Shown here: positions 26,146-32,736 of the stretch, in pieces
How the letters are laid out: every line of letters begins with the position of its first letter
How positions within the stretch are numbered: position 1 is the first letter of the stretch
The notes under the pieces: generated by a model
Seen by the model: the letters and a program-made list of their open reading frames with translations, nothing else
What the model was told of the DNA's origin: nothing
Database searches by the model: none
Made by a program: the position numbers and the translations under genes
Assembly: GCA_045611705.1 (NCBI GenBank)
Contig: JAZKXR010000007.1
Coordinates: forward strand, 248,662-312,661
Length of the DNA: 64,000 nt
Direction of reading: 5' to 3'
Source of the DNA: Alphaproteobacteria bacterium
GTDB lineage: Bacteria; Pseudomonadota; Alphaproteobacteria; CAAHEQ01; UBA3637

Positions 26146-26174
26146 TTGACACCCAAGAAAAAAAAGAATAGACT
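26146..26174 (+). promoter_or_regulatory. Sigma70-like promoter (TTGACA-17-TAGACT) for the N-ATPase operon
   Basis: -35 at 26146-26151 and -10 at 26169-26174, then RBS AAGGGAG before ATG 26198. Confidence 0.45.
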
Positions 26175-26197
26175 CACAGCCAAAAGGGAGAGAAAAA

Positions 26198-27586
26198 ATG
26201 TCACTTCATACAGGGAAAATTACCGCTATTTCAGGTAGTGTCGTTTTGGTCAGATTCCAAAATAATCCACCCAGCATTTTCAACGCGTTACAGGTGAATG
26301 ATTTGATTTTGGAAGTACAAAGCTATGCCGATGAAAACACCGTTCGTGCATTGGCAATGGGTTCTACCCAAGGCTTGGCACGCGGTATGAGCGTTCAGGA
26401 TTTGGGACATCCCATTGAAGTACCAGTAGGTCAAAAAGTTTTGGGCCGTATGTTTAATGTTTTGGGGCAACCTTTGGACGAAAAACCAGCATTAACTTCT
26501 GCCCCTACCCGCTCTATTCATGCACAATCACAACCTATCAGTAAATTAAATGTCAGCAATAAAATCTTTGTAACAGGAATTAAAGCTATTGACCTGCTCG
26601 CCCCCATGGAACGCGGCGGAAAAGCCGGCCTGTTCGGTGGTGCCGGTGTGGGTAAAACGGTTTTAATTACCGAAATGATAAACAACATGGTTGGCCGTTA
26701 TGAAGGCGTCAGTATTTTTGCCGGTGTCGGCGAACGTTCCCGAGAAGGCGAAGATTTATATCGTGAAATGCAACAAGCTGGTGTTTTAAGTAAGACCGTT
26801 ATGGTTTTTGGTCAGATGAACGAAACACCGGGTGTACGTTTTCGCGTTCCCTTATCTGCCCTGACAATGGCAGAATACTTCCGTGACGAAAAAAAGACAG
26901 ATGTTTTGTTATTGATAGATAACATCTTCCGTTTTATTCAGGCCGGTTCAGAAGTATCTGTCTCTTTGGGGCAAATTCCTTCACGTGTGGGATATCAGCC
27001 TAATTTGGGAACGGATTTAGCCGATTTAGAAGAACGTATTTCATCCACAAAAGATGCAGCCATCACATCTATTCAGGCGGTTTATGTGCCGGCCGATGAT
27101 TTTACCGATCCTTCGGCCACGCATACATTCTCGCATCTGTCATCTACAATCGTTTTATCACGAAATCGAGCAGCTCAGGGGCTTTATCCGGCCGTTGATC
27201 CGTTGGAATCGGGTTCAAACATGCTGACACCTTTGATTGTGGGCGATCGGCATTATAAGGTAGCTATTGAAGTCCGAAAAACTTTGGCTCAATACGAAGA
27301 ATTAAAAGACATTATTGCCATGTTGGGCTTTGATGAATTACCCGAAAAAGATCAACAAACAGTTCAAACCGCCCGAAAATTAGAACGTTTTTTAACGCAA
27401 CCGTTCTTTACCACAAATCAATTCACGGGTATGCAGGGCCGTTCTGTGGATTTAGAGGAAACAATTACCGGCTGTGAACGTATTTTATCAGGTGAATTTA
27501 AAGATTTTACCGAAGATGACTTTTTCATGGTCGGAAACATTGATGAAGCCATTCAAAAAGCCAAGAAAAGAAAAGGAAGTAAATGA
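26198..27586 (+). CDS. atpD: N-type ATPase beta subunit
   Basis: 462 aa with Walker A GGAGVGKT and the DELSEED-like region DELPEKDQ. First gene of the beta-epsilon-Q-R-a-c-b-alpha-gamma order. Confidence 0.9.
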
Positions 27587-27990
27587 AATTAAAAATCCTG
27601 ACACCGGCTCAAATCTTTGTTGACACCTTTATTGAAAAGGTGGATTTTGAAGCTGTGGACGGATTTTTCACACTTTTGCCCAAACACATTGATTTTATCA
27701 CTTCTTTAAAACAAACAATTGTTCAATATCAGGCCAATAACAAAACCCATTATGTGGCCTGCGATCGTGGCGTGGTTGTTAAAAAATCAGACGAAGTTAT
27801 TATTTCAACATCATTGGCCATTACAGATGATAATTTGGAAAAATTAAAAAAGACCATTGAGGTTGACTTTAAACAAATGGAACAGGAACGAAAAGAAGTT
27901 TTAGTTTCTATGTCACGATTAGAGGTCGGCCTGACAAAAGGTTTGATGAATTTAACCTCAATGCGGGAGGCGAACCATGTCGGAATTTGA
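27583..27990 (+). CDS. atpC: N-type ATPase epsilon subunit
   Basis: 135 aa, overlapping the beta stop. Typical F1-epsilon size and position. Confidence 0.75.
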
Positions 27991-30326: not shown

Positions 30327-30334
30327 GAGAAAAG

Positions 30335-31861
30335 ATGTCAAACTCAGTTGCCACAAAAGCACGGAAAAATGCCGAAAAGGTTTTGAAAAAATCTGATTTT
30401 CAGTTACGTGTCAAAGAAATAAACACCATTGAATCAATGTCGGCAGGAACAGCCATTGTTTCAGGTTTGACTCACGCCAAAATCAACGAGCTTTTAAGTT
30501 TTAAAAACGGCGTTATCGGTATGGTTCACAGTTTGTCCGATAAAGGTGCCGGGGTTATCTTTTTAACCAATGCTGATAGCTTAAAGGCTGGCGACAGAGC
30601 CTCTCAAACAAATCAAGTTTTGGATGTTCCTGTGGGTAATGAATTATTGGGACGTGTTATCAATCCTTTGGGGCAACCATTGGATGATAAAGGTATAATC
30701 AGTGCGAAACAAAGCCTGCCTATTGAACGGGACGCTCCATCCATTATGGCACGATTGCCCGTTGATACACCTTTACAAACCGGTATCAAGGCCATTGATT
30801 GCTTTACCCCCATTGGTCGTGGTCAGCGTGAATTGATTTTGGGCGATCGTCAAACAGGTAAAACAGCCATTGCCGTTGATACAATTTTGAATCAAAAAGA
30901 TTCAGGTGTTATTTGTATTTACTGTGCCATCGGACAACGACTTTCCGATACTGCCCGCGTCATCAATACCTTAAACAAATATGATATGATGAAAAATTGC
31001 GTGGTTGTAATTGCCAGCGGTGAAGACGAAGCAGGATTACAATATATTGCGCCCTATTCTGCCACATCTATCGGTGAATATTTCATGAGTAAAGGTAAAG
31101 ATGTTTTGGTTGTTTATGATGATTTAACAGCCCACGCCCGAGCCTATCGTCAAATGTCATTATTGTTGCGTACTCCACCAGGACGTGAAGCTTATCCGGG
31201 TGATATTTTTTATTTGCATTCACGTTTATTGGAACGTGCCACACATTTGCGCCCCAAATTCGGTGGCGGTTCTTTAACAGCTTTACCAATTGTATCCACA
31301 GAGGCCGGCAACATATCCGCCTATATTCCCACAAATGTGATTTCAATTACTGATGGACAAATCTATCTGTCCAACAGTTTGTATCAAAAAGGTCATATGC
31401 CGGCCATTGACACGGGGCGTTCTGTTTCCCGTGTGGGCAGTGCTGCCCAATTACCGGCTTATCGTTCTTTGGTAGCACCATTGAAACTGTTTTATTCCCA
31501 ATTTGAGGAGTTGGAATCTTTTTCAAAATTCGGTGTTCAAATGGAAGGCGATACCTTAGCACGATTAAAACGAGGTCGGACCATCCGAAACGTTTTACAA
31601 CAACGCCAATATCAATTAATGGATGCACCTTCTCAAATCGGTGTCTTTTTAGCCTTAAACAACGGTTTATTGGATAATGTTGAAGAAAGCAAAATTTCCC
31701 AAGCCCAAGATGTTATTCAACAAGTGTTAAGAAATAACTTTACTCATCTTTTAAAACAATGGACAGAAAAAAGGGAAAAATTGTCCGAAAAAGATAAAGA
31801 CACTTTGATTAAAACATTCCAACAGGCTTTGATTAAAAAAGGAATTATTAGCACAAAATGA
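30335..31861 (+). CDS. atpA: N-type ATPase alpha subunit
   Basis: 508 aa with Walker A GDRQTGKT and F1-alpha conserved blocks. Confidence 0.9.
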   Translation: MSNSVATKARKNAEKVLKKSDFQLRVKEINTIESMSAGTAIVSGLTHAKINELLSFKNGVIGMVHSLSDKGAGVIFLTNADSLKAGDRASQTNQVLDVPVGNELLGRVINPLGQPLDDKGIISAKQSLPIERDAPSIMARLPVDTPLQTGIKAIDCFTPIGRGQRELILGDRQTGKTAIAVDTILNQKDSGVICIYCAIGQRLSDTARVINTLNKYDMMKNCVVVIASGEDEAGLQYIAPYSATSIGEYFMSKGKDVLVVYDDLTAHARAYRQMSLLLRTPPGREAYPGDIFYLHSRLLERATHLRPKFGGGSLTALPIVSTEAGNISAYIPTNVISITDGQIYLSNSLYQKGHMPAIDTGRSVSRVGSAAQLPAYRSLVAPLKLFYSQFEELESFSKFGVQMEGDTLARLKRGRTIRNVLQQRQYQLMDAPSQIGVFLALNNGLLDNVEESKISQAQDVIQQVLRNNFTHLLKQWTEKREKLSEKDKDTLIKTFQQALIKKGIISTK

Positions 31862-32736
31862 CACAAGAAACACTGAATAAACGAATTAAAACAACAACAG
31901 ATTTGCGTGGTATCGTCAGCACCATGAAAATGTTGTCGTCTGTTTCTGTGGGACAATTTGAACGTGCTTTAAAATCATTAAATCAATATACGGAAAACAT
32001 TCAAAATGCCTTTCGTGGACTTTTTGCACAAGAATCTTTTCAATATACCCCCCCTGCTATACGTGCCAAAAACAAAAAGATTTTAGCCGTTCTAATTGGT
32101 TCTGACAATGGATTGGTTGGGCGTTTTAATCGTGATATTTTGGATAATATGAAAAAAACATTAATACCGATGACAGATAAAAATCAAATTAAGATTATCA
32201 GTATCGGCAAAAGATTATCCGCCATCATCCAAACAAACGGATTTCACTTATTGGCCCATTATAACAATTCAAACACGACCAAAGAGGTTTCAGCTTTGGC
32301 TGGTGCCCTTTTAACAAAAATACACCAATTGGTCAGCAAAGAACAATTTGATTGCGTTTGGTTGTTTTATACTACACGTCAAGATACCAAAACATCCATT
32401 ATCGGCGAACAACTTATCCCTTTCCAACAAAATTTATTGGATACGATTAAATCCAAAAAATGGGATGGACGAACTTTACCTTTAATCACGGCAGAACATG
32501 ATGAACTATTTTCCGCCTTGATTCGTGAACACTTTATCGTATCGCTGTCCCATGCATTGACGGCCTCTTTAGCAACCGAACATTATACTCGTATGATCCA
32601 TATGCAGCAAGCCGAAAAAAACATCGATGAAAAGTTGGCTGAATTGGAATTGATCTATCAACAAGAACGCCAAAATCAAATTACAAACGAACTGATTGAC
32701 ATTGTTTCAGGTGCAGAAGCCATCAATAAAAGTTAA
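31858..32736 (+). CDS. atpG: N-type ATPase gamma subunit
   Basis: 292 aa. Conserved gamma N- and C-terminal helices (...ITNELIDIVSGAEA). Overlaps the alpha stop. Confidence 0.85.
   Translation: MTQETLNKRIKTTTDLRGIVSTMKMLSSVSVGQFERALKSLNQYTENIQNAFRGLFAQESFQYTPPAIRAKNKKILAVLIGSDNGLVGRFNRDILDNMKKTLIPMTDKNQIKIISIGKRLSAIIQTNGFHLLAHYNNSNTTKEVSALAGALLTKIHQLVSKEQFDCVWLFYTTRQDTKTSIIGEQLIPFQQNLLDTIKSKKWDGRTLPLITAEHDELFSALIREHFIVSLSHALTASLATEHYTRMIHMQQAEKNIDEKLAELELIYQQERQNQITNELIDIVSGAEAINKS

Follow-up and report, generated by a model that had tools for sequence, protein, structure and literature searches.

The N-ATPases are a class of rotary ATPases known from Methanosarcina, marine cyanobacteria, Burkholderia, and other organisms, and by definition they always occur in addition to a regular ATPase (Dibrova, Galperin and Mulkidjanian, 2010; PMC2881411, PMC5706428). 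Most descriptions of them come from marine, halotolerant, and soil organisms, and they are seen as mobile accessory pumps for Na+ (or H+). We report here an operon of this class located in a 64,000-nucleotide stretch of an alphaproteobacterial genome assembly (contig JAZKXR010000007.1; the whole stretch is called the window below). Judged from its genes, the operon is predicted to encode a complete, intact N-type (N1No) rotary ATPase, and it is a long-standing resident of a lineage of gut Alphaproteobacteria. It adds a host lineage to a known enzyme class, of which it is a divergent and ecologically unexpected new member, and it is not a new kind of system.

The locus shares with the N-ATPase class its gene order, the small membrane proteins AtpQ and AtpR, the latter with two membrane arginines, a long b subunit with a delta-like C-terminus, the lack of a delta gene, and a two-glutamate c subunit with the ESTxxY motif. 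Its subunits are also nearer to N-type than to F-type sequences. However, the host is an uncultured gut-associated alphaproteobacterial lineage and not a marine, halotolerant, or soil organism, and the operon is stable, syntenic, and compositionally native, not obviously a mobile insert. It is also divergent, its beta subunit being only 58-64% identical to those of other N-types and most of its subunits scoring under the NCBIfam cutoffs. Among individual enzymes, the best functional precedent for Na+ pumping is the N-ATPase of Aphanothece halophytica, which was shown experimentally to move Na+ and makes its host more salt tolerant (cited in PMC5376962, PMC5706428). It has the same operon type and the same predicted Na+ ligands as the window operon; however, its host, a halotolerant cyanobacterium, possesses a regular H+ F-ATPase as well, and the window enzyme is known from genes alone. 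The N-ATPase from Burkholderia pseudomallei, with a c17 ring and H+ specificity (PMC5376962), has the same architecture and also E30 in helix 1 of its c subunit, but helix 2 reads E61-T62-M63-x-x-Y66, an incomplete Na+ set, whereas the window has E63-S64-T65-x-x-Y68. The packing motif of c helix 1 differs as well, being AxGxAxAxG in B. pseudomallei and GxGxAxGxA in the window (residues 23-31, read by eye). The ion-binding residues of the c11 rings of Fusobacterium nucleatum (3zk1) and Ilyobacter tartaricus (1yce) match those of the window position for position, with Q for E in helix 1 of I. tartaricus. Both of these are regular F-type synthases with a delta subunit, an atpI-type operon, and the synthesis direction; only the c-ring chemistry is common to them and the window.

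Gene set, affinity, and predicted ion site

Nine consecutive open reading frames (ORFs) fill positions 26198-32736 with no frameshifts and no internal stops. Each of the nine has a significant Pfam match, with E-values from 1e-10 to 2e-81, far beyond chance, and the ORF map together with Pfam and NCBIfam gives the following genes (lengths in amino acids, aa):

26198..27586, + strand: atpD, N-type beta (catalytic) subunit, 462 aa; PF00006 E=1.6e-72; TIGR03305 725.6 bits
27583..27990, + strand: atpC, epsilon subunit, 135 aa; PF02823 E=1.1e-15; TIGR03166 ("alternate F1F0 epsilon") 100.7 bits
27977..28291, + strand: atpQ, small membrane protein, 104 aa; PF09527 E=2.7e-13; TIGR02230 54 bits, cutoff 46.7
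28278..28571, + strand: atpR, N-ATPase hallmark membrane protein, 97 aa; PF12966 E=2.2e-13
28564..29262, + strand: atpB, a subunit (stator ion channel), 232 aa; PF00119 E=3.4e-46; NF004481 259.5 bits; TIGR03306 254.9 bits
29266..29547, + strand: atpE, c subunit (rotor ring), 93 aa; PF00137 E=8.1e-17
29562..30326, + strand: atpF, long b subunit, 254 aa; PF00430 E=2.2e-12; TIGR03321 ("alternate F1F0 subunit B") over the full length, 176 bits
30335..31861, + strand: atpA, alpha subunit, 508 aa; PF00006 E=2.3e-81; TIGR03324 ("alternate F1F0 alpha") 687.4 bits
31858..32736, + strand: atpG, gamma subunit (central stalk), 292 aa; PF00231 E=3.8e-55; TIGR03323 ("alternate F1F0 gamma") 214.4 bits

The resulting order, beta-epsilon-AtpQ-AtpR-a-c-b-alpha-gamma, is the atpDCQRBEFAG order of the N-ATPase, and no delta (OSCP) gene was found in the operon by the ORF map and the Pfam search. 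The first-pass annotation of this DNA had claimed exactly this order without delta, two extra membrane proteins between epsilon and a, and an affinity to N-ATPases. The ORF map and both profile collections agree with the order, the two extra proteins are those matching PF09527 (AtpQ) and PF12966 (AtpR), and the affinity is borne out by the comparisons given below. The span of 26146-32736 that it had assigned holds for the nine genes but not for their start, as beta begins at 26198 and the -35 hexamer of a promoter-like site opens at 26146. Adjacent genes share 4, 14, 14, 8, and 4 nt at five junctions and lie 3, 14, and 8 nt apart at the other three, and such tight junctions are the expected pattern of a translationally coupled operon. 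The catalytic motifs are intact, namely Walker A in alpha (GDRQTGKT from residue 170) and beta (GGAGVGKT from residue 147), the beta catalytic motif, and the essential arginine of the a subunit, R164 (FRLYGN), which aligns with SFRLFGN of the chloroplast a subunit. The beta sequence reads GERSREG from residue 178, and its DELSEED loop is degenerate (DELPEKD, from residue 379).

The affinity of the subunits was evaluated with the NCBIfam N-type models, named "alternate F1F0 ATPase", and with the F-type equivalogs TIGR01039 (beta), TIGR00962 (alpha), and TIGR01146 (gamma). The N-type model scores higher for beta (725.6 versus 644.2 bits), alpha (687.4 versus 588.7), and gamma (214.4 versus 135.4), and an "alternate F1F0 ATPase" model is the top one for six subunits, i.e., beta, alpha, gamma, b, AtpQ, and AtpR. 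A generic "F0F1 ATP synthase" model leads the N-type one by 1.4 to 7.5 bits in the case of epsilon, a, and c, and for the a subunit the generic F0F1 subunit A model NF004481 exceeds its own cutoff. The curated "exception" cutoff of the N-type models is exceeded only by epsilon (100.7 versus 100.1) and AtpQ (54 versus 46.7). Scores below it were obtained for beta (725.6 versus 752), alpha (687.4 versus 750.5), gamma (214.4 versus 282.35), b (176 versus 224.7), a (254.9 versus 302.1), c (124.2 versus 130.85), and AtpR (34.7 versus 55.5). Sub-cutoff scores with N-type models that are still the best or near-best ones indicate a divergent subclade.

Comparison loci point in the same direction. A scan of one genome per species gave 80 loci, onto which the nine proteins were mapped. 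The identical beta-to-gamma order was found in 59 of them, spread over many phyla, with beta 58-83% identical to that of the window, whereas in loci with the classical a-c-b-(delta)-alpha-gamma-beta-epsilon order beta is just 54-58% identical. Neighbour-joining trees of both beta and alpha place the window and four metagenome-assembled genomes (MAGs) of Alphaproteobacteria within the N-type group, apart from F-type sequences. Among solved structures no N-type holoenzyme was found by sequence, and the best PDB matches of beta and a are ordinary F-type enzymes.

This affinity is not visible in public annotation. Close homologues carry the names "F0F1 ATP synthase subunit beta" or "F-type H+-transporting ATPase subunit beta" (P0016, P0018, P0066, P0122-P0124), which is likely due to scores slightly under the NCBIfam exception cutoffs. 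It constitutes an annotation blind spot, in which N-type and probably Na+-coupled subunits are named as an ordinary H+ F-ATP synthase, and metabolic reconstructions would then wrongly infer proton-driven ATP synthesis.

The c subunit contains a predicted two-carboxylate Na+ site, formed by E30 of helix 1 and, in helix 2, the segment M-I-E63-S64-T65-A-I-Y68. Residues E30, E63, S64, T65, and Y68 correspond to E32, E65, S66, T67, and Y70 of the F. nucleatum c-ring (PDB 3zk1), with no gaps around the site. It had been claimed earlier that the ligands align residue for residue with those of I. tartaricus, and in a 75-sequence alignment this holds, the sole change being the helix-1 residue (E30 here, Q32 there); the I. 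tartaricus c-ring (PDB 1yce) was also a match, and the reference sequence used agrees with 1yce across its full 89 residues. E30 and the ESTxxY motif are kept in relatives with beta 78-99% identical and in most other N-type loci. The sole N-type c subunit that was biochemically characterised as H+-specific, from B. pseudomallei, has E61-T62-M63 (PMC5376962). The window enzyme is predicted to be Na+ specific because of the published ligand rule (PMC2881411), the ring structures of F. nucleatum and I. tartaricus, and the precedent of A. halophytica.

The small membrane proteins carry further marks of the class. AtpQ, in which hydropathy analysis gives two hydrophobic segments, is present instead of AtpI. 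Of the three hydrophobic segments of AtpR, the second contains R53 and the third R83. AtpR sequences were gathered by searching all frames with a hidden Markov model (HMM), and in an HMM-guided alignment of 62 sequences Arg fills the R53 column throughout (62/62), and the R83 column has Arg in 55 and Lys in 6 of the 62. This arginine pattern agrees with the family description (PMC2881411). As a side observation, AtpR of the window has a weak match to PF03899 (ATP-synt_I, E=0.00078), and the AtpR profile also matched a small membrane protein in an F-type locus of Thermotalea metallivorans (L073). The latter protein may be AtpI-like and a distant relative of AtpR, consistent with the PF03899 match.

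The b subunit has a single N-terminal membrane helix and a delta-like C-terminal domain. Its residues 173-247 give a weak OSCP match in Pfam (173-244) and matches to delta models in NCBIfam. When the C-termini of 50 N-type b subunits (among them window residues ~146 to 248) were made into a profile and compared using hhalign with 10 F-type deltas, delta positions 89-177 were aligned with a probability of 97.4% (E=1e-11). The b C-terminus is homologous to the C-terminal domain of delta, and b therefore incorporates part of the missing delta.

Host lineage and inheritance of the operon

The earlier description of the source as a host-associated alphaproteobacterium agrees with the identity of its closest relatives, uncultured Alphaproteobacteria of the ruminant digestive tract. 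In the one-genome-per-species scan, the four closest species-level genomes are all labelled as Alphaproteobacteria MAGs, and the record titles of two of the four name the digestive tract, i.e., goat abomasum and roe deer jejunum. The third has "Nepal" in its name, so that a human gut sample is possible but unstated, and the source of the fourth, INTA.CYC.063, is also unstated. The lineage is widespread; a large protein collection contains more than 120 clusters (90% identity) at about 76-99% identity to the window beta. Related human-gut Alphaproteobacteria, e.g., Azospirillum sp. CAG:239, reportedly have no terminal oxidases and live by fermentation (PMC6431628, PMC4967309). Another order of gut Alphaproteobacteria, Rs-D84, was reported to have reduced genomes without respiratory chains and, in some members, an "F0F1-type ATP synthase" (PMC12306168). 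Membership of the window organism in Rs-D84 / Candidatus Enterousia was considered but is unsupported, since the relatives inspected carry PGI and acetyl-CoA carboxylase genes, which are missing from that group according to the same report (PMC12306168). In the literature on the bioenergetics of RF32, CAG-239, and Rs-D84, nothing was found on the type of ATP synthase.

The operon keeps its place in the genomes of these relatives. On an ENA contig with a 99%-identical beta (L081) the gene arrangement is conserved. In relatives with beta 97%, 91%, 83%, 83%, and 78% identical, the operon is followed by an HU/IHF-like gene, accD, and a 2-hydroxyacid dehydrogenase gene, and in the nearer ones it is preceded, as in the window, by genes for NAD kinase, an outer-membrane protein, ABC-F, a fucosyltransferase, dut, and pgk. 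The composition of the operon is host-like. Its GC content is 0.388, and 0.355 at third codon positions (GC3), compared to 0.370 and 0.301 ± 0.051 for other genes, and its relative synonymous codon usage (RSCU) correlates with theirs at r = 0.93. Because of this host-like composition and the synteny kept in relatives with beta 78-99% identical, the operon is an old, vertically inherited resident of a gut alphaproteobacterial lineage, and any transfer must be ancient. Recent horizontal transfer is ruled out by GC3, RSCU, and the conserved synteny, and the first-pass view of the operon as laterally transferred does not stand for its recent history, leaving at most an ancient event. The accompanying claim that housekeeping atp genes are absent from the window was correct: with the nine subunits as tblastn queries, no further ATP synthase paralogues were found in the 64-kb window, and the only additional match was that between alpha and beta.

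Proposed function and rival readings

The enzyme is probably a pump that exports Na+ at the expense of ATP by the usual rotary mechanism. It is proposed that alpha3beta3 hydrolyses ATP, by which gamma/epsilon and the c-ring would be rotated against the a subunit. Each c subunit would carry one Na+, held by E63, S64, T65, and Y68 of the outer helix and E30 of the inner helix, and R164 of the a subunit would push the ion into the exit half-channel, through which it would leave the cell. The long b would form the peripheral stalk, with its delta-like C-terminal domain standing in for the missing delta. The two buried arginines of AtpR probably pair with the two c-ring glutamates in ring assembly or in regulation, a pairing during assembly having been proposed for the class (PMC2881411). 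In an anaerobic gut alphaproteobacterium facing a Na+-rich lumen, such a pump would keep cytoplasmic Na+ low and supply a sodium-motive force for transport. The direction of pumping is assigned because of a class-wide argument (PMC2881411), and it agrees with the likely fermentative lifestyle. That a divergent branch with all the Na+ ligands is stable and syntenic in a widespread clade of uncultured gut Alphaproteobacteria points to a sodium-based membrane economy in little-known gut anaerobes. Several facts weigh against this reading. The direction argument itself rests on N-ATPases always being second copies (PMC2881411). Seven of the nine subunits are below the NCBIfam exception cutoffs, the beta and alpha trees are neighbour-joining trees without support values, and the ion specificity is predicted solely from the c-subunit ligands. 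Moreover, both the window enzyme and its close relatives are known only as sequences.

The same mechanism could also serve a cell in which this enzyme is the sole rotary ATPase, i.e., a housekeeping membrane energiser by which a strictly fermentative organism turns glycolytic ATP into sodium-motive force. We regard it as a tenable but clearly less probable account. The first-pass label of an accessory and not a housekeeping ATPase draws on the literature about the class. The sole-ATPase account is kept in view because of the anaerobic, gut-associated clade, the core-like behaviour of the operon, and its plain F0F1 name in public annotation. The operon lies among core genes, with synteny kept even in relatives whose accD is only ~69% identical, its composition is host-like, and other atp genes are lacking in the 64-kb window. 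None was called among the genes listed in roughly 20-kb stretches around the operon in five relatives either, and tblastn of the nine subunits in L001 to L004 matched the operon only. The reported lack of all terminal oxidases in human-gut Alphaproteobacteria such as Azospirillum sp. CAG:239 (PMC6431628, PMC4967309), and the "F0F1-type ATP synthase" encoded by some Rs-D84 members without respiratory chains (PMC12306168), would suit such a cell, and a genome with only an N-type enzyme would escape notice as long as its homologues are labelled "F0F1 ATP synthase". However, each N-ATPase in the complete genomes examined so far accompanies an F- or A-type enzyme (PMC2881411, PMC5706428), the window is just ~3% of a genome whose size is estimated at roughly 2 Mb, and the PGI and acetyl-CoA carboxylase genes of the relatives are unlike the strongly reduced Rs-D84 genomes (PMC12306168). 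The full form of the proposal, in which the N-ATPase is the only rotary ATPase of a strictly anaerobic fermentative gut lineage, vertically inherited and its primary generator of membrane (sodium) potential, is doubtful. If true, it would be the first exception to the rule of "always next to" another ATPase that stands behind the name N-ATPase, and complete genomes without a second ATPase would require a revision of the view that an N-ATPase cannot be the sole rotary enzyme.

The remaining readings concern the direction, the ion, and the class itself. The enzyme would be a Na+-driven ATP synthase, as in Ilyobacter, Propionigenium, and Fusobacterium, if a decarboxylase, Rnf, or Nqr supplied the gradient; its c-ring ligands equal those of F. 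nucleatum, whose ATP synthase is Na+-driven, rotary ATPases can in principle run both ways, and the A. halophytica paper cited in PMC5376962 calls its enzyme a "Na+-dependent F1F0-ATP synthase". This is unlikely, as no primary Na+ pump genes were found among the ~50 window ORFs scanned, removing the N-ATPase operon from Methanosarcina acetivorans left ATP synthesis unaffected (cited in PMC2881411), and the sole ring stoichiometry known for the class, c17, is read as compatible with a pump (PMC5376962). Still less probable is a proton-coupled N-ATPase serving pH homeostasis as in B. pseudomallei. N-ATPases with incomplete ligand sets do exist, H+ specificity having been demonstrated for one of them (PMC5376962), enzymes of the Na+ type are able to move H+ when Na+ is low (PMC2881411), and one relative comes from an acidic compartment, the goat abomasum; but the window c has the full E/ESTxxY set, unlike the ETMxxY of B. 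pseudomallei (PMC5376962). The idea that this is an ordinary F-type housekeeping ATP synthase whose genes were rearranged might be drawn from the public names of its close homologues ("F0F1 ATP synthase", "F-type H+-transporting ATPase") and from scores slightly below the NCBIfam N-type cutoffs, but it is scarcely credible and is already contradicted by AtpR with both arginines, AtpQ, the missing delta gene, and the delta-like C-terminus of b. The higher scores and identities to N-type sequences and the grouping of the window with N-types in the trees contradict it as well.

Putative promoter region and neighbouring genes

Upstream of the operon a single feature was annotated on the basis of its match to a consensus:

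26146..26174, + strand: putative operon promoter, TTGACA-17-TAGACT, consensus match only, 24 nt 5' of the beta ATG (26198)

The number of promoter-like sites in the region is no higher than expected from shuffled sequence, and the position of this one is compatible with the 120-bp gap found in the 99%-identical relative (L081). No terminator-like site was seen 3' of gamma. On the opposite strand, a perfect sigma-70 consensus, TTGACA-17-TATAAT (26128-26100, minus), lies within the longest NAD kinase ORF (25328-26152, minus, GTG start at 26152). The NAD kinases of relatives are 242-249 aa long. Because of these lengths, the true start of NAD kinase is probably near 26077, and a divergent promoter region of ~120 bp would therefore be common to the NAD kinase gene and the atp operon.

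The rest of the window consists of housekeeping genes, including rpoD, suf, pyk, pgk, polA, lysS, lepB, rnc, era, recO, and genes of glycogen enzymes. The latter, both on the minus strand, are a glycogen branching enzyme encoded by glgB (55876-58071) and, at 52969-55014, an enzyme of the debranching or isoamylase-like type; pyruvate kinase, phosphoglycerate kinase, and an aldose epimerase are encoded elsewhere in the window. The glycogen and sugar enzymes fit a sugar-fermenting lifestyle. A GT10 alpha-1,3-fucosyltransferase gene (FucT_N and Glyco_transf_10 domains; 19315-20280, + strand), whose position is kept in the relative L082, is of the kind used by Helicobacter for Lewis antigens and may serve host-glycan mimicry in a gut bacterium. 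At the left end, an ORF at 3-4292 (minus, at least 1430 aa) runs off the window; its predicted product, acidic and full of repeats (PDVKT-type and AENAQLK coiled-coil-like ones), has no family assignment, and the ORF accounts for the strong AT and GC skew at positions 1-4000. Finally, the segment 36903-38061 (minus) encodes a short HprK with the C-terminal domain only, EIIA-Man, and a small ORF that corresponds to HPr in relatives. This set is a regulatory module resembling the phosphotransferase system and typical of Alphaproteobacteria, and it is adjoined by two MlaD genes and a DUF2155 gene.

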